This document shows positions 259 through 64,000 of a stretch of 64,000 bases of DNA, one piece after another. Each line of letters begins with the position of its first letter. Position 1 is the stretch's first letter. The position numbers and the translations under genes were made by a program. The notes under the pieces are model-generated. The model was not told where the DNA came from. It worked only from the letters and a program-made list of their open reading frames with translations, and did not search any database. Origin of the DNA: Octopus vulgaris (taxonomy: Eukaryota). Where the stretch lies: contig OX597814.1 in assembly GCA_951406725.2 (NCBI GenBank), forward strand, positions 37,944,001 to 38,008,000, written 5' to 3'.

Positions 259-2936
259 ATCATTGTTGGTCTTTACAGGCCTCCTCAAGCACCTCTAAAG
301 TACTTTGAAGAGTGCCTTAACAAAATCAAGTCCTTCCTTCAAAAATACAACTCCGAAAACATACTAGTGATGGGTGATTTTAACCTCCCTCATATAAACT
401 GGCCCACAAATACTCTGAATTTAGGCAAATGCTCTACATCAGATAAAGCAGCATCAGAATATCTCTTTAATCTAATGGATAAATAAATCCTGACTCAGCT
501 AGTGCTCGAACCAACAAGACAGAATAAAACGATCTTGGATCTAATATTAACCAACCACTCTAGCTTCGTTCACAGTATTTCATTTGAAAAAACTCTCCAC
601 TCAGACCACGACATGGTACTCTGCAATTTTAATTTCCGACATATATAAACCAAACCAGCCAATACCACTTCCATGGCTCTCATTTGACAACATAAACTTC
701 CACAAAGCGGACTGGGGAACAATCAGAAAGGATTTGTCTTTCATCGACTGGTTTTTTACTCTCAATTCCACTCAAACTGAGATCGCATGGCAGCACTTTG
801 AGAACATTGTCACCTATACATGCTCTAAACGCGCTCCCACGAAATCTACTAACACAAACAGAAAACGGCTCCCTAAAAAGAAAAAAAAACACTCATCAGG
901 CGCATCAAAAGACTCAATAAAAAAATCAAGCAATTAAAATATTCCCACATGCAACATCCACATTCAACAACAATAAAAAGGCTAGAGTTGGAAAAACTTC
1001 ATCTGCAGACCGACATGAAACCTCCATTGAAAATCAAAGAGCTGTGGAGGAACAGTGGGTAATCAAAAACATCAAAGAGAACCCAAAAGTGTTCTATTCT
1101 TATGCAAATATGCATAGAACCACTGTCACACCCATTGGGCCATTGATTGATGATAACGTCATTCCCCAACACGATGCTAAAGAAATGGCAGAAATACTGC
1201 AGAAACAATACTGCTCAGTCTTTAGTGTTCCCACTGATATTGACGTAAGAGAAGCGAACGAAGTTGATTCCCAACATAAAATCTCAGACATAACTTTCAC
1301 TGCCTCTGAAATCATAGCAGCAATAAATGAGGTCAAATACTATTCTGCTGTAGGCCCTGATAGATTCCCTGCTAGTCTCCTGAAGGAATGTAGACACCAA
1401 CTTGCAGATCCTCTGACCAACCTCTGGAGAAATTCGTTAGACTCAGGTTATATACCGAAACAGCTTCTATCCCAGTCTGTCATCCAGGTTTTCAAATAAG
1501 GAAACAGATCCCTCGCAGTCAACTATCGCCCAATCTCACTCACCTCTCACATCATGAAAGTGTTTGAAAGAGTGTTAAGATCAAGGATAGCTGATTTCCT
1601 GGAGACCCACACACTTCTAAATGCAAATCAGCATGGCATTCGCTGTGGCAGGGACTGTCTAACACAGCTCTTACACCACATTGAAGATATACTCAAAGCC
1701 TTGAGAATAGATTCGAAATCTGATGTCATATATCTTGACTTCAGTAAAGCGTTCGACAGGGTTGACCATAATATCCTACTCTCAAAATTGGCAAATGTTG
1801 GAATCAGTGGAATACCTCTACACTGCATTAAGTATTTCCTGGCGAATAGAACACAGCATGTTGTAGTTGATGGAGTCCACTCAAGCCCAGCAAAAGTCAC
1901 CAGCGGTGTTCCCCAGGGGACTGTTTTGGGTCCGCTACTCTTTATAATTTACATAAACGACCTTTCCAGGGTCGTACATTACTGCAAATTGAAAATATTT
2001 GCTGATGACACTAAGCTCCAGCAAATCATCAATGAAGAAGCAGACCGAACTCAAATCCAGTCTGATCTATATGATGTGAGTCAATGGGCAGACAGAAACA
2101 AAATGCAACTGAACGAGGGAAAATTTGAGCTGATGCATTTTGAAAGAAATTCCTCACTAAAACAGCCATACTCTCTTCCTTCAGGGGAACCGCTCACAGC
2201 CTCTAACAATATCAGAAATCTGGGTGTAATTGTTGATTACACCTCAGTTGGAGTTCACACATCAACAATAAGGTCGATATAGCTCGTAGGATGAGATCCT
2301 GTATCTTTAGAACTTTTCGGTCCAGAGAACAAGGTGTCATCATACCACTTCTCTCCTCCTTTGTACGGCCACACCTCGAATACTGCTGCCCACTGTGGTC
2401 TCCCCATACAAGACAAAACATGTCGAGGACTGAATCACCCCAGAGGGCACTACTAAACGAATTGAAGACACGGTTGCTCTCGATTATTGGGACCGCCATT
2501 AGCGGTACATCATTTGTACGATGTGGAGAATATACTGCCAACTTTGCCCAGGCGACCTGAACATTAGCTTCAAGGTTAATCCGAGACTGGGACAACGGGC
2601 CATACGTCCCCTGCCCAATTCAAGACCACAGCATACATGTACACTGCAACATAATTTCTTTTCCTCAACAGGACCTGCCCTATTTAACATTGTCCCGAAA
2701 GAGATCAAAGAGGAAAAGGATCCCGTCAACTTTAAACGGAGTCTGGATAGATTCCTTCAGGGAATACCAGATAAGCCACCCATAATTGGATACAACTCAC
2801 CCAACAAAAACTCACTACTTGAATGGACCATAAACAAAAGTTGACTTAAACAGGATTTAGATAATCCTATCAGGTGGTGCTATTAAGTTAGACATGGCCT
2901 GGACCAATCGAAACATATCTAACTTTTATCTAAGTT
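256..2936 (+). mobile_element. CR1-group non-LTR retrotransposon, 5'-truncated, with APE endonuclease and RT broken by stops and frameshifts
   Basis: From 256 the frame reads IIIVGLYRPP...ILVMGDFNLP...ILDLILTN...HSDHD (APE motifs). RT motifs: QHGIRCGRDC, YLDFSKAFDRVDH, GVPQGTVLGPLLF, FADD. C-terminal motifs RPHLEYCCPLWSP and NSLLEW follow. The short 3' tail runs into (TA)n. Confidence 0.93.
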
Positions 2937-5397: not shown

Positions 5398-6136
<739 letters not shown>

Positions 6137-6183
6137 GAAAAAACAAGTCAAAATAGTAAATGTTAAAATAATTTTATAAAGAA

Positions 6184-6231
6184 CATTTCAGTACCGGTTT
6201 CGGTCATTTTGAGACCTTTTCAACTGTAACG
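6184..6231 (-). ncRNA. Minimal type I hammerhead, U3-A8 core variant (left arm)
   Basis: cgttacag TTGAAAA ggtc tcaaaat gacc GAAA ccgg TA ctgaaatg. Confidence 0.72.
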
Positions 6232-6614
6232 ATTAAATAATTAAATTTAGAAAAATTAGAAGAAAAGTTTTTTTAAAGGAATATTTGTATAGTGTTCAGA
6301 TATAAGTGGCATTCTGCATTTCTCTGACTCCCTTGTTTGCACTTGTGTGTTCGAGGTCGTTGTGAATTCTCGGTAGGGTAGAAGAAGAAGAAGGCTGATG
6401 AGGAGAGGGGGTGGACAAATTTGGGAGTTCCTTGATTGTTGTATTTTGAATGGTCAGTGAACTTCTACCCTACCAAGAATTCACAACGACCTCGAACACA
6501 CAAGTGCAAACAAGGGAGTCAGAGAAAGGCAGAATGCCACTTATAACTGAACACTATACAAATATTCCTTTAAAAAAACTTTTCTTCTAATTTTTCTAAA
6601 TTTAATTATTTAAT

Positions 6615-6662
6615 CGTTACAGTTGAAAAGGTCTCAAAATGACCGAAACCGGTACTGAAATG
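6615..6662 (+). ncRNA. Minimal type I hammerhead, U3-A8 core variant (right arm)
   Basis: Identical motif to 6184-6231 on the opposite strand. Confidence 0.72.
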
Positions 6663-6802
6663 TTTTTTATAAAATTATTTTAGCATTTTCTATTTTGACT
6701 TGTTTTTTCATATACATCAACTCGTGTGTTCCTTTTCACCCTTATACATATATATGTATATATATACTTACATATATATATATATATGTCTATATATAGA
6801 TA

Positions 6803-14181: not shown

Positions 14182-15002
14182 TTCACAACTGTGCTACCCA
14201 CTTCAAACATAGAGGAAAGCACCAACAAAACTGCCGTAAGGCAGCAAAATATCTGTCTTAAGACACAGCAATTAATAAAAATTCAACTGGATAAAACATA
14301 TTAACTAACCTCTAGAACAAAGTAATGAATTGCCTTAAATCTAGTTGTCAGTCTGAATTCTTAATTGCCCACTAGAGGGCTAAACTTAGAGAGGACAGTA
14401 CAAGGACAGACAAAACACAATACAGGGGCAAAGAAAAAACAATGAAAAATTATGAATTAAATAATGAAAATGAAAACTGAAATTAAGCCACAAGATCCCA
14501 CATCCGTACGACCTCATTTATCGTCGTTATAACGATAGATCACTTTTTAAAAACTTTTAACACATAAAATGTCTATTTGAAAATTGTTAATAAGTTCCAA
14601 GTAACTTCCTGACTTTGGCAATCTCCTAGTGTCAATTGCAATTTCCCAGAAATGAGCATCGTTCCCGAATCCTCTCAGTCTTGGTATGTACTTGGGGTCC
14701 GTTAAAACGCAATTATAGAGCAAGGGCAACCTACTACATTGTGCAGTGTTTACCCATATAATATTCTCCCACCTATTTAACTCCTTCAGTAGCTTGTATT
14801 TTGGCAAATCGTAAACGATAATATTTTTTCTATTTATTTTCAGATGATTTGAGTTTGGGAGTTTGGGCTCTTATGTAATTATATTTAATGTATCGGTCTC
14901 AGTTAGGGGTAGAATGAGGGCAGATGCCTGCAAGGGAAGGTTGGAGTAGAGTGGGTCTGGGTGGAAATCGAGTAGACGTGGGATAGGGTTTTATCATTCA
15001 CA

Positions 15003-15150
15003 TATTGTGTATTTTTCTTCCTCTTTCTCCTATACTTGTCTTGTTTTTTTGTTTGTTTCTATTGTTCGGAAAAAAGTGTGTATTCCATGTCTCCGTGTTT
15101 CTTATTTCCTGTTGTTTACGTTTTATGACGTCCTGTACCCATATATGCAT
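15003..15150 (+). mobile_element. 3' fragment of the repeat family also at 32041-32200 and 39990-40390
   Basis: Shared T-rich body ending gtcctgtacccatata. Confidence 0.6.
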
Positions 15151-18100
15151 ATATACATATACATATATATATATATATATTATTTATATTATTATGCGAT
15201 TGAACACCACGCATCAATTTCCAAATAAGTTTATCTTTCTATATATGTATAGGTAGATAGATAGATATTTATATCACAAATATGAGGTTAATAAAGTGAA
15301 ATAATTTATTGCCAGTGGTTAGCATGCATAACTAAATGTCATAAGACAACATATTTTCAAAAATATAAGATTGTTTAAAATAGTTTTATATAGAAACCGG
15401 AGACAATTGGCAGGACACCTTAAAATCTGAATGGGCCTGTTGAAACCCAAACCACGAAAAAGAGTATTTATAAATACATATATATACACACACACACATA
15501 TATAATCATATATATACTTATATCTGTATACTTATATGTATATATACGTATATATATACATATATATACTTTTGCATATATATATATATATACTTACATA
15601 TATAATATATATAATATATTTATATACATACATGCATACATACATACACACATACATAAAAATAACGATAAGCACACAAAAAAATTCATATATATATATA
15701 TAAATTTCGATTTCTGTTTTCACAAGTAAACGACGTTAACACTTGGATTTCCACTTTAACTATCTTTGCTTTTTCCATTCTCTTATTGTGTCCATAACTC
15801 TGCTATATATGTAGCTTTCTTCACTGCATCGCACACTTTATCAACAACACGTGATATATTTGAATACACATTTAAAATATTTTTCAAAACATTATTCCAT
15901 TGCCTGCCTTATAAACAACAATCTACTATGAGATTGCAATTGTGTGCAATAGACATCTTCATAAAATAGACACTGTGCATCGTTATACCGACTTCATTGA
16001 AATTATACATTTTTGCCAGTGAACCTATGGTCAGTTCATCTGATGCAACCCAAAAATAAATCTTTGTGTTGGCCGTTTGTAGTTCAATCTAGTCATTCAT
16101 TTAGTACTTTGAAGCGTTGCTGATTTTATTTGCCTACGATTTGTTAGTTGTTTGGAATTATTCCAAATTGTTCGAAATTTCGCATTTCAAATGTAAAATT
16201 ATTATGTAGAAAAGAGAGTTTCGTACAAATGAATACATTGTGCAAAAACAAAAGAAGCTTTATCTCTAAGAATACACGAGTAAGTCTGATTGATTTAAAT
16301 GTTGGTGCGGTGTGTATTCTTGTGTTTCTATGAATGTGTGACCGGTTGAGTCTATAACCGAATTTTGTTTCATGTCATTCTCCACATCGATGACCTCCGA
16401 TGCGCCATCTCACCATTGAAACATATCATATAAATGTATACGTCACACACTATTGTTTTTATAGGTATAGTTAGCGGTGACTGTGATCACAACCTTTCAA
16501 TCGATGATGTCAAAGTCAGTGTTTGCAAACTTACAGCAGCCAATATTAGAACAACTGTATTGCATAGCTTATGATATATATATATAGCACAACACTTTTA
16601 GTATTTTTTTAAGAATATTCTATATTTTGCAGTTGTTTATAGATATCATATTTCCTAAATATATCTACGGAGCACTTATGCAAAACAATCATTGATATAC
16701 TATAAGAGACATTTTTGTTTCAAAAGTTGTTACGGTGTACAGAAGATTTCTGGTTTTATTTTTAATTCAAAAATACCTTGTGCAGTTACTGCACTTATAA
16801 ATTAGACATTTATAGTACAGTTTCTTATATAGTATATTATAAGGGTTTTGAACCATTATTTTTGAAATAGGAAATATGATAGCTACTACTATATTCAATG
16901 AATGTCAAACTGAAATAATCTGAATCGTCACATTCCATCTGAAATGATATATTCCCTCATTAGCGTTATTGATTAGTTGATTAAGTAAGTTGTGTTTCCT
17001 TGTACGGCCAGACAATTACCTCTATTTGTATGTGTCTTTTTTACAGAGGTTCAATTTCAAAGTTAGGATATAAATAATATATATATTTTGTATTCTCCTG
17101 CATCTAGTGGTTGTCTTTTGTTTAAACAATCCAAAGCATATGTTTTAAATCTAGCTTGTGGAAATGCTAAACAAATCTTGCTAATATAATGTATGAAATA
17201 AAAAACACAGTGTCTTATCAAAAAATGAATTCAAGTTCTTGATCACTGCCGTTCCCGGTTATGATAGGCCTGGAGGGAAGTAAAACAAATGTCTACTTCG
17301 AGTACTAAGAAAGTTAATATTGTATTCAATAAGTAGACATGAAAAATTGCCTAATGATTCTCAATTCCTTTGGTTGTAATTCAGTGTTTTGTTTCCATTC
17401 TTTCAAGAAGTAGATTCTCTTTGAAGTGACTCTAAATTTTGGTAGACATAGGAAACTGGATTATATACCTCAAGCAACATTCTGTAATAACTTTTAACGA
17501 ACCTCATTTAGAAGGAACCCACGAATAGGAATTTGACTGCAAAATTCTTGAATGTTGCAAAACACAGCTACTCAAATCAGCCTACTCAGAAACAACCAAA
17601 ATCGCACTTACATATGAACTCACACACATATATACACACATTGATATATAAATATATAAACACTGAGAGATAGACAGGCAGACGGTGGAATTCATAATTC
17701 ATAAGTACGTACGTAATATACTTTTTTGTGGGTGGTTTCCAAATTAAATTCTATTGAACTTGTGTCTATGCATATTTTTTATGGAACATGCATTATGCGC
17801 CGTCCAATTGGTTAGCAGAAAAGGAAATTCAGTAATAGCTATTTACATATGTGAATGTAATATGAATATTTCTATTCACATATTTACAAATTCTTCGTTT
17901 GCAGCGGTTTCTGAAACGTTATTAATATAATCGACTTCATATTCTATGATATCAAATGTTACCCTTCATTATAAATCATAGCAGAATACATGTAATTCTC
18001 AGTGTCATTTATATATCAGGTACCTCAAATTTTAAAATCATTCTTGGTAATATATCATGTGTGTCTAGCAACATTTTATTCCCTTTAATGAATTAACTGC

Positions 18101-32040: not shown

Positions 32041-32200
32041 TGAAGAAGGGGAATTTTCCTTGTTTTGTATGTCCTGTAATCTATTTTTTCGTTGTTTAAG
32101 AAAAATGTCCGTTTCATTGGTTTTGTGTGTGTTCTCGTTTCTCAATGCGTTCGACGTTTTTTTGGTGTCCTGTACCCATATATACATGTATATATACATG
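32041..32200 (+). mobile_element. 3' fragment of the 39990-40390 family, starting within the CTGAAGA box
   Basis: tgaagaaggggaattttcc...gtcctgtacccata matches the reverse complement of 40010-40149. Confidence 0.7.
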
Positions 32201-32924: not shown

Positions 32925-33013
32925 ATATATATGTATATGTAAAAAATAACAAACTGGGACAAGAATGCAAAACATTTAGAAGACGATACAAAAAACACGG
33001 ACGGGACATTCGA

Positions 33014-33079
33014 AGCCTTCAATCTCCAGTGAAGAACCGGGTCATCCTTGCAATTTCGGCTGATTAATCTTGAGATCGC
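33014..33079 (-). ncRNA. Hammerhead-core motif with non-canonical strand order (candidate pseudoknotted HHR)
   Basis: gcga TC tcaaga ttaatc agcc GAAA ttgc aaggatgacccggt tcttca CTGGAGA ttgaa ggct. Confidence 0.6.
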
Positions 33080-33166
33080 TCCGATCCGGCCAACCCCAAA
33101 GAAAAACTAAGCTACGAGCTTTAGATATCTTGGAAAAAAAATCGTATGTATACGAAACAAGGACAG

Positions 33167-33259
<93 letters not shown>

Positions 33260-39835: not shown

Positions 39836-39989
39836 TTCAGTGTATATGTGTACAGACACAAAGACACACACACAATTATGTATATACTTATGTTTGTGTC
39901 TGTTCATACATATATATATACAAATATATAAATAATATATAAATATATGCATATATACGTATATATATATATATACATACCTACATCTA

Positions 39990-40390
39990 CATGTATATAT
40001 ACATGCATATATGGGTGCAGAGCATCAAAAACACGTTGAACATAATGATAAACGAAAACATAAAAAGAAAAACATGGAAACGAACTTTTTTCAAACAACG
40101 AAAAAACAGAGTACAAGACATACAACAAATGGAATATTCCCCTTCTTCAGTTGTCACTGTTTCGTCTACTCCGCGTTTCTAAGTTAAGGCCAAGACGCAT
40201 CTTTGCTGAAACAGTCCTTCCCGCAAAGCAAATTAAATCAAATTTGGGATTTTTTGCGGAGGGGTAAAAGTGGTAACAAGAACAGGACAGTAAGAACAAA
40301 ACATGACAATAGAAACCATAACAGTAAAAGACAGAACAAAGAGAATAACACAGTAAAAACAACGATGAGGGCTGTTAAGCCAAGATGATG
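39990..40390 (-). mobile_element. Dispersed repeat (probable PLE-type 3' end) carrying a permuted hammerhead motif
   Basis: Homologous to 15003-15150 and 32041-32200. Confidence 0.65.
40139..40199 (-). ncRNA. Hammerhead-core motif with non-canonical strand order (candidate pseudoknotted HHR)
   Basis: tgcg TC ttg gccttaa ctta GAAA cgcg gagtagacgaaacagtga caa CTGAAGA agggg. Confidence 0.58.
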
Positions 40391-40730
40391 GGAAAATTAC
40401 TCTGAACGCTTAAGGAGACAGCTTATGAGAGAGACAGGATAAGTATCGAACGAAATTTTATCTTAATAATTATGATGCGCACTCTTCATCTTTACTATTT
40501 CTCCTCTGTCTAAATTTCTCCCTCTCTTGTTCTTCATTGTTTTTGGTTTTCTCTACCACCCTTCTCTATTCTTTTCTTCTCCCCTTCACCGTCCCCTCTC
40601 TCTTACTCTTCCTCCTCCTCCTCCTCCTCCTCGACTCTCCCGTCACTGACACGTGATCAGAGGAAAGCCATCTTTCCAACGGCTATCTTCCCCAAGACCA
40701 GACCGCATAAACTGTCTCTCTCATAAGTAT

Positions 40731-61860: not shown

Positions 61861-64000
61861 ATGTATCTATCTACCTAAAGAAAAAGAGGCAAAAGCACTA
61901 GGCCAATTTAGACCGATTTCACTACTAAATACAGAAGGGAAAATCATGTTCGGAATAATTGCTAGACGAATTATAAGATTCGTACAGCATTTTCCATCTG
62001 GGAAGCCATCACCTGTGCAAAACAAATGAAGAAAAACCTGTATATTGTTTGGCTAGATCTTGCCAACGCCTATGCATCTGTTCTGCACGCAATAATAAAA
62101 ACAGCGATGGACTTCTTTTAGATTCCAAAAGATGTTCAACGAATGCTCATGCCGTACTACGACAACCTGGGGATGAGATTTACAGCAGGAAAGTTTACAA
62201 CGGAGTGGCAACGGCTTGAAATAGGTATTGCAGCCGGATGCACGATATCAGTCATCTTATTCGTGCTAGTCATGGAAATGCTACTCAGATCTACAAACTG
62301 TGAGAAAGCTGTTACAAAGACACCATTAAGGGCTTTTATGGACGATGTAACTATATTATCGGAAAGTAGAGAAGCAGCAGATAGGATGAGCAAGGATGAA
62401 TTTCAAAGCCAAAAAATTTCGAAGCGTGGCTTTCGTGTAAGGAAGGCAAGAAGAAGTGAAATTTAGGATAGGAAGTGAAGACATACCAACGGTGAAAGAA
62501 CAACCAGTAAAGAGTCTCGGCAGATGGTATAAAGATTTATTAAGTGAAAAGAAGCAAGGGAAAGAAACGCACGAGTTAGTAGAACAAGGATTAAATGCAA
62601 TTGACAGAACAACGCTGCCGGGAAAATTCAAATGATGGATACTGCAATTTGGGCTGTACCCAAGAATAATGTGGCCATTGCAAATGTACGAAATAGCCTC
62701 GAGTATAGTAGAAAGGATGGAGCAAAGATGCAGTGTGTTTATCAGAAAATTGCTTGGTCTGCCGAAACCACTGAATACAACTGCACTATATGGAAAACCC
62801 GTGCCGCAACTACCGATAACATCAATCGCCGAAGAATATAAGGCAGGAAAGGCAAGGACAGTAATGGTGCTAATGTATTCAAAAGATCAGAGCATCCGGG
62901 AAAACCCTCCAAAGGTAAGAACAGGGAGGAAATGGAAGGCGGAAGAGGCAGTAAACAGGGCGATCGGAAAACTAAGGCACGCAGATGTAGTCGGAGCGAC
63001 GCAAGAAGCTAGAACCGGCCTAGGGTCGCAAAACTTTAGGCCATTTTGCAAGAGCAGTGTAAAAGAGATGAAAGAGGCAGTGGTATAATAATTGAGAAAG
63101 TAGGAAGGAGAAAGGCGAAATGTCCATTTGGTGCAAAGCAACAGGGACAGTACCTGAGATGGGAGGAATATGTGATCAACCGCAGAATATCATGGAAGGA
63201 ACTTTGGGCTTGGGAACAAGCAAGAACATCCTTCCTGATCAAGTCTACCTTCGACGTTCTACTCTCACCGGCGAACTTAGTCCGGTTGAACATAAAAACA
63301 ACCGACGAGTGTATATGCGGAGAGAAAGCGACGGTTAGACATGTTCTGTCAGGTTGCAGACTAGCACTAGAAAGATATACATGGCGGCATAATCAAGTCC
63401 TCGGCGTCATAAGCGCAGCACTCAAGGATAATATCGAGAGGTACAATAGGGGAGAATACCCAAAAGTAGAAAAGCGCAGGAGAGTATACTTTCAGAAGGA
63501 GGGAAAAGGTTATAAAACCAGGCCTACAAGTAAAGTATACGAGAAAAATGGAAGTGATACTGGGAGGTGGCCCACGGACTTGGAAAAACAAGTAATGTTT
63601 CCTCTAATAAAAACAACAAAAATACGTATTTAATTCTTTGGAACAGAGACCGGAGAATGGGAATTTTACTAGAACTGACAGTACCTTGGGAAGAGAACAT
63701 CGGCAATGCAGAGAAACGAAAGGAGAAGAGGTATGAAAAGCTAATCGAATAATGCAAAGAACAGGGATGGAATGTCGAATATTATCACCTGGCAGTGGGG
63801 GCTACAGGCTTCATTGAAAAGAAAATGACAACGCTTTTCAAAAGAAGATTTGTTTTTTCTAGCCCCGAGCTGCGTAACTAATAAGGAGGGTACAGAGGGC
63901 GGTCAAAAAAGCTAGCTTCTATATATGGCTGAAGCGGGAAGACCGAAAATTGCTTGAAAATGAGACAAGCTGACTGCCTTGTGACGGTCGTTTAGAAGAA
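61861..64000 (+). mobile_element. RLE-type (R2 group, HERO/NeSL-like) non-LTR retrotransposon, 5'-truncated and frameshifted; 3' UTR runs off the window
   Basis: IYLPKE..FRPISLLNTEGKI, WLDLANAY, GIAAGCTISVILF, AFMDD, zinc motif CICGEKATVRHVLSGC + YTWRHNQVL, and RLE motif LELTVPWEEN..KEKRY. Confidence 0.92.

Follow-up and report, generated by a model that had tools for sequence, protein, structure and literature searches.

A conserved six-helix RNA with a hammerhead core and an upstream stem II strand, predicted to cut itself, in Penelope-like repeats of Octopus vulgaris

Intact relatives of a decayed repeat copy in the window (the whole 64,000-nucleotide stretch of Octopus vulgaris DNA analysed here) fold into a conserved RNA of six helices that contains the whole hammerhead core and has the 5' strand of stem II (IIa) upstream of the cleavage site; judged from sequence, this RNA is likely to cut itself, probably as a dimer, and we give this reading a probability of about 0.7. 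Conservation of the six-helix fold is almost certain and cleavage by intact copies appears probable; the need for a dimer, should cleavage occur, is somewhat more likely than not. The widest form of the proposal, which we hold to be an even bet, is a seventh wiring of the hammerhead, outside the six thought possible, that is opened in the core by a four-way junction, acts as an obligate head-to-tail dimer and is the ribozyme so far missing from much of the Naiad clade across animal phyla, with tens of thousands of copies in this genome. The interest lies in the family rather than in the window copy.

An earlier note on this DNA had described a hammerhead in the reverse order site-GAAA-CUGANGA at 40139-40199. 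The reverse complement of this interval agrees with the sequence and boxes given there and places the motif on the minus strand. The note was also right that this copy (family B) has the order of boxes, and none of the stem sequences, of a copy at 33014-33079, which represents a second family (family A). The motif is longer than the 61 nt first assigned to it and covers about 40264-40139. The features of the window are as follows.

39926..40443, minus strand: family B copy, a 5'-truncated non-coding Penelope-like repeat of about 0.8 kb (blastn against a longer copy, 89% over 521 nt)
40453..40727, plus strand: inverted piece of the family B unit adjoining the 5' end (87% over 275 nt)
40264-40260, minus strand: P5 5' strand (CCCCU), partner 40143-40139 (MFE fold, alignment, swap test)
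40221..40259, minus strand: P6 hairpin, adjoining P5 and stem II with zero unpaired bases at the four-way junction (alignment, MFE)
40220-40216, minus strand: stem II 5' strand GAAGG, first base G10.1, displaced 5' of the cleavage site (swap test and alignment)
40208..40214, minus strand: P4 5' strand, counterpart of the type-SGC stem I-II interaction helix (swap test, helix table, MFE)
40188..40199, minus strand: block S, with stem III strand 40199-40195, predicted cleavage nucleotide C40194 (GUC) and stem I strand 40193-40188
40172..40184, minus strand: block G, with stem II 3' strand 40184-40180, GAAA 40179-40176 and the stem III strand
40163-40151, minus strand (within 40139..40163): P4 3' strand 40163-40157 and stem I strand 40156-40151
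40150-40139, minus strand (within 40139..40163): CUGAAGA 40150-40144, then P5 3' strand AGGGG 40143-40139
32926..33169, minus strand: family A copy with the same architecture, unrelated stems, a decayed core box (CUGGAGA) and predicted site C33074
32041..32264, plus strand: truncated B-group copy (84% identity) that follows a (TA)n/(TG)n run and starts within the CUGAAGA box
14968..15192, plus strand: diverged 3' tail of a B-like element without the ribozyme core (local score 190, maximum of 200 shuffles 133)

Two truncated relatives had been proposed at 32041 and 15003; the first stands, and the second holds only as a diverged tail. The family B copy ends in (TA)n-rich sequence, and the inverted piece at its 5' end is typical of Penelope-like insertions, with the same layout at L002, L015 and L018. 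Helix assignment bears out C40194 as H17, with the cut predicted 3' of it. Stem II has decayed in this copy: its 3' strand, CCUUC in the family, has lost C11.1, and 2 of 5 stem II pairs and 2 of 6 stem I pairs are gone. Unconstrained minimum free energy (MFE) folding nevertheless recovers P5, P6, P4 and stem III (z = -1.2). The copy is probably a degenerate, dead insertion and very unlikely to be active itself; since C11.1 and part of stems I and II are lost, it is a poor substrate for a cleavage assay. Elsewhere in the window, reading of the translations shows broken LINE-type reverse transcriptase (RT) frames at 551-2844 (plus strand) and, at 62122-63633 (plus strand), the remains of another non-LTR element, its RT and C-terminal zinc-finger-like frames both broken. 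A 256-nt inverted repeat at 6129-6717, 98% complementary with its arms 77 nt apart and with (TA)n flanks, resembles a hairpin-like insertion.

The architecture was read from a helix table for 20 of 21 representatives. From 5' to 3' it runs P5a, P6 hairpin, IIa, P4a, loop, IIIa, UH, Ia, linker, IIb, GAAA, IIIb, loop, P4b, Ib, CUGANGA and P5b; automatic assignment of stems I and III failed for L135 and L184, and that of P5 and P6 is doubtful for L105, L174 and L137. The strand preceding GAAA finds its partner roughly 20-28 nt 5' of the cleavage site. P5, P6 and stem II adjoin with 0-2 unpaired bases, so that A9 and G10.1 meet at a four-way junction, which carries two extra helices and replaces the A9-G10.1 link. 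The pairs G10.1-C11.1 and U16.1-A15.1 occur in 20/20 representatives, and most other positions show 3-4 pair types; the presence of an upstream stem II in 20/20 follows in part from the method, which takes the best partner within 32 nt, and the swap test described below is its control. The linker between stems I and II measures 1-7 nt in 19/20 and 23 nt in L249, stem III has 4-12 bp, and the GAAA-to-CUGA spacing ranges from 19 to 33 nt. Seven folds were compared with shuffled sequence, with z of -3.1 (L192), -5.8 (L201) and -4.3 (L198) and weak values (-1.4 to +0.2) for the other 4/7.

The joint between stem III and P4 differs among elements. Family A (L045, L128) and the octopus Naiad end (L167) carry a kink-turn-like GA/NNNGA loop, which we take to match the kink-turn consensus. 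The B group has a loop-E-like AGUA/GAA motif; a small purine loop occurs in L193 and the B group, a 3-nt bulge in L192 and an inserted hairpin in L201 and L249. In the published Naiad_EuTe sequence, as far as it was available, the arm contains by eye a single bulged base between helices of 10 bp and 5 bp.

Covariation among unrelated sequences carries the fold. From 204 box matches, 88 had stems I and III of at least 8 bp, selection being on these stems alone, and they formed 33 clusters. When partner strands were exchanged among clusters, a test in which related families raise the null and clusters are phylogenetically non-independent, the native strands scored 11.9 against 7.8±0.5 for upstream stem II, 13.5 against 10.3 for P4 and 14.6 against 11.8 for P5 (0/5000 each). 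Six metagenome clusters alone gave 9/5000, 30/5000 and 9/5000 for the same three helices. In a MAFFT alignment of 16 B-group sequences, scored over five helices with P4 excluded because its columns were misaligned, 93% of cells were paired and 15/24 pairs were changed on both sides, compared with 37-50% in slid controls; the covariation score was 0.52 against 0.25 (0/500). Both sides had changed in 3/4 pairs of P6 and 3/5 pairs of stem II, and P5 was paired in 92% of cells with both sides changed in 1/5 pairs. No alignment row has G at H. Throughout the families, CUGANGA lies beside stem I, GAAA lies between stems II and III, and an NUH site accompanies U16.1-A15.1; stems I-III covary and G10.1-C11.1 is kept, from which the window copy departs through the loss of C11.1.

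These data support the proposal of the earlier note that the two copies share a reverse-order structural class, supported by natural covariation, at the ends of Penelope-like repeats, and they change its pairing scheme. Stem I had been drawn as ttg/caa; the family stem I is longer, with 6 bp (UUGUCC/GGACAA), of which the window copy keeps 4/6. The weak stem II (ctt/ggg) was mispaired: the partner of AGGGG is CCCCU at 40264-40260, and that of the strand before GAAA is GAAGG at 40220-40216. That first reading had recognised the class without three further helices, the Naiad link, the published type-SGC class or the loss of C11.1 and part of stems I and II. A stem II register consuming G8 and A9 in families A and B was considered as well and given up in favour of the upstream partner. 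The boxes are not those of two canonical hammerheads side by side: no neighbouring canonical box pair explains them, and stems I and III covary in site-GAAA-CUGANGA (S-G-C) order.

The reverse order is abundant beyond chance. In the genome (2.8 Gb, 227 contigs), CGAAA-N20-30-CTGANGA matches 42,011 times against 7,713 for the reversed-pattern control, an excess of about 34,000 spread over many families with different stems; another S-G-C pattern gave 12,961 against 3,220. Among the first 30 box matches, chosen regardless of pairing, 13 had stems I and III of at least 8 bp (swaps 1.7±1.2, maximum 6 in 5000). A first look yielded 2,472 candidates for family B, of which 40 were scored (90-100% identity) and 30 aligned, and 2,412 for family A; stems I and III are better in most copies of both families than in the window copies. 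Strict intactness at fixed positions was found in 7/30 family B copies, some failures reflecting mis-anchoring by indels, and most changes among copies fall at CpG, as in neutral decay. Canonical-order boxes are also frequent (74,977 against 21,305 in the control, for example C1:170323-170354). In one dominant canonical-order family a single base is inserted after A9 and the stem II strands are those of rewired family A, which may point to a common origin or to exchange. A further repeat group (L100, L101, L107, L108; C1:13.1-23.9 Mb) has site-GAAA-CUGANGA boxes with U for C before GAAA and a longer spacer; its stems gave no clean fit from single copies, and L100 contains two inverted copies 3.5 kb apart.

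Families A and B are non-coding units of about 0.8-0.9 kb. In each the 3' end is fixed and lies in (TA)n, the 5' end is truncated to varying extents, inverted pieces occur at the 5' side and a short tail repeats the start of the unit. Partial tandems are found (L035, L045, L058, L060), including three copies 832 bp apart at L092; together these are the traits of Penelope-like and Naiad elements. No GIY-YIG plus RT open reading frame (ORF) is present in the units, whose longest Met-initiated ORFs measure 69-170 aa. In the accessible part of Craig et al. 2021 (PMC8557442), Naiads show the same (TA)n bias, partial tandems, inverted 5' pieces and a tail of 30-40 bp, and they differ in having an ORF with N-terminal GIY-YIG and RT, whereas family B is non-coding and lacks an ORF.

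Coding Naiads carry the motif at the expected place. Naiad remnants in this genome closely match, by eye, the available part of the published octopus Naiad consensus, and 10/30 RT remnants are followed by the motif in sense orientation at a distance of 1.2-1.7 kb; antisense matches numbered 2. The motifs after the remnants are of the Naiad sequence type and not family B. The GIY-YIG remnant L114 led to 13 proteins (3/3 scanned have N-terminal GIY-YIG plus RT), and an alignment of these proteins led to 77 metagenome loci. In 7/77 of the loci the motif follows the ORF match in sense orientation at a distance of 143-1,781 nt, with different stems in each; in the other 70/77 none was found after the ORF within the available DNA, which is often short, and CUGANGA alone showed no sense-strand enrichment (16 vs 16). 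One locus (L247) has a copy upstream of the ORF too, as a pseudo-LTR would place it. In a separate remnant, L113:1025-1300, the 5' part of a Naiad runs straight into the 3' ribozyme end, beyond which lies the 3' half of a motif from another family.

In the parts of PMC8557442 available to us, Naiads are reported to lack a canonical hammerhead, no structure being given, and an 'HHR_half_core' is noted in eight of them including that of Octopus vulgaris, the other half lying 35-50 nt to one side or the other. Among the box occurrences surveyed by eye in the accessible consensus file of that paper, a part of the whole and some hidden by line breaks, we found the whole fold in Naiad_Ovul, the record before it, three Acropora records and Naiad_EuTe, and in at least one further record near part 12 of the supplement. 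Stems I-III and P4 are visible in two other records (parts 9 and 12), and the fold with a short stem I in Naiad_Bfor, again by eye in the accessible portion. By eye, then, published Naiad consensus sequences with the fold include cnidarian, crustacean and octopus ones. Parts 13-19 of the supplement, where accessible, hold nematode Naiads with canonical-order boxes and long insertions, and several arthropod records with a CCCC-CUGACGA box in a different arrangement. Sequence homology between family B and an autonomous Naiad was not found, the link being RNA architecture and target preference; we infer that family B is a non-autonomous passenger of Naiad-type enzymes.

How might such an RNA work? 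P5, P6, P4 and stem III would fold first into a nested scaffold with two loops left over, one terminal (H17, Ia, IIb, GAA) and one at the junction (IIa, Ib, CUGANGA). When these dock, stems I and II and the hammerhead core would form, followed by a cut 3' of H17. The docking partners would be two copies, either tandem pseudo-LTR copies or two transcripts; we consider this most likely because the arm formed by stem III and P4 is nearly straight in several elements (L192, Naiad_EuTe), and by analogy it fits the partial tandems and the dimer behaviour of other Penelope-like hammerheads. Cleavage could then reduce multimeric transcripts to single units that serve the Naiad RT as templates, as has been proposed for the canonical hammerheads of other Penelope-like elements.

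A first rival is the same rewired hammerhead acting as a monomer, its III-P4 arm folding back through a kink-turn, bulge or three-way junction while P4 bridges the tips of stems I and II, which we regard as unlikely. In a crude reach estimate based on A-form helix dimensions, bends of up to 120 degrees leave a monomer gap of 27-68 Å, against linkers that span 7-14 Å. A full U-turn narrows this gap to 9-15 Å, which, with the kink-turn-like loops of family A, L128 and the octopus Naiad, makes a monomer possible in group A and the octopus Naiad; the loop could allow fold-back or help to close a dimer ring. The hairpins at the III-P4 joint in L201 and L249 speak for a monomer too, as does the accessible part of PMC10085705, where a few SGC RNAs have stem III linked directly to the interaction helix and the tested SGC constructs cut during transcription. 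Against it, the arms of L192, L193, the B group and, in the part seen, Naiad_EuTe cannot easily reverse, and the GAAA-to-CUGA spacing is variable. If the RNA does not cut at all, it may be a cis-element derived from a hammerhead, such as an RT-binding or packaging signal, whose core words are kept for folding. The scaffold is indeed bigger than catalysis needs, and cleavage is a prediction; yet C3-A9, G12-A15.1, U16.1, an H that is not G and G10.1-C11.1 remain fixed while every helix changes, the expected residue of selection for cleavage, and we consider this explanation improbable. Four presumed-RNA contig sets contain the family sequence with a dip in depth over the core; as contigs do not reveal RNA ends, and the flanks are common to related families to a greater degree than the core, nothing is concluded from the dip.

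Whether the motif is an ordinary type-SGC hammerhead turns on the partner of stem II. In that case the bases that follow CUGANGA would make up stem II, allowing for a small insertion, and pairings further upstream would be alternative or regulatory folds. The B group taken alone agrees with this: GGGG/CUUC pairs in 95% of cells, mostly through G-U, with one column changed on both sides, and a one-base insertion after A9 has precedent in Penelope-like (PLE) hammerheads (PMC4209133, accessible text). The B group by itself does not settle the partner, and the distant sequences do, on sequence grounds. Across the 33 clusters the downstream stem II, even with 0-6 inserted bases, scores 6.2 against 6.0 after swapping (1582/5000, non-significant), and the canonical A9+1:G12-1 pair of a downstream stem II is present in 4/20 representatives. 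Moreover, the strand after A9 is occupied by P5, and L192, L193, L201 and L252 offer at most 3 downstream pairs in any register. An ordinary type-SGC fold is thus highly improbable. Chance boxes in an AT-rich repeat, multiplied by copy number, have virtually no probability left. CUGANGA and GAAA are short, the 61-nt piece folded alone is no better than shuffles (z 0.25), and Rfam gave no hammerhead among the 150 listed of 182 matches at E<=1 in the window, which were microsatellite-driven microRNA noise, and 0 matches at gathering score for seven loci; no Rfam hammerhead match is expected, since the strand order is changed. Unrelated sequences from independent sources nevertheless share one fold in the swap tests and the alignment, and a descriptor blind to CUGANGA refutes chance. 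Built from four helices, GAAA and U16.1, with CUGANGA and H free, and run on both strands of 508 kb, it made 6 matches, all on the sense strand after an ORF and all among the seven metagenome motif loci (L252 was missed), with CUGANGA in place in 6/6 and H never G.

If the rewired, dimer-forming hammerhead is real, the reported absence of hammerheads from Naiads would be explained for at least part of the clade, the strand order having been invisible to standard descriptors. Non-circularly permuted ribozymes would move from anonymous metatranscriptome RNAs to animal genomes, at very high copy number, and the assumption that CUGAnGA must continue straight into stem II would be broken. As natural intact copies exist, a simple transcription assay would suffice to examine cleavage, the partner of stem II and the formation of dimers separately.

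The order of the blocks is published; the wiring appears to be new. In the full-text literature, outside most subscription papers, we found no SGC-like or core-opened hammerhead in Penelope-like elements and no test of a chain break at A9-G10.1, although the supplements of Eckert et al. and of a bioRxiv study of non-LTR retrozymes (10.64898/2026.07.22.740005) could overlap. According to the accessible text of Cervera and de la Pena 2014 (PMC4209133), PLE pseudo-LTR hammerheads are minimal type I ribozymes that act as dimers in tandem, and one-base insertions after A9 are known in them. With these and with the retrozymes, as far as the sources were available, our motif has in common its position in terminal repeats, massive copy number, tandem non-autonomous units, proposed dimer action and tolerance of an extra base 5' of stem II. 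In contrast, those ribozymes have the order CUGANGA-GAAA-site with a short or palindromic helix III, whereas the rewired motif has the longer stem III given above, and any dimer would form through loop-loop docking. Tandems are present, but the ribozyme is not of type I, which sets the motif apart from non-LTR retrozymes.

The closest known system is the type-SGC class (HRIMA-1 and variants) of Eckert et al. 2023 (PMC10085705), which is non-circularly permuted and has the order site-GAAA-CUGANGA. In the part of that paper available, its RNAs come from metatranscriptomes, none having been found in genomes of known organisms, and they cleave in vitro at 0.007-0.19 per min; CUGAnGA and the adjacent stem strands ('block C') are assumed to be inseparable. 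Measured against the accessible description, the S-G-C order, the short linker between stems I and II, mutually crossing stems and a fourth helix between the tips of stems I and II, the counterpart of P4, are shared, and an intact block C is absent. The stem II 5' strand follows CUGAnGA directly in type SGC and lies upstream in the rewired fold, where both P4 strands join stem III and the chain is open at A9-G10.1 through the P5/P6 four-way junction; the rewired motif resides in animal retroelement DNA, type SGC in metatranscriptome RNA. Given its four-way junction, the motif can be read as a type SGC hammerhead whose ends have been joined and which has been reopened inside block C.
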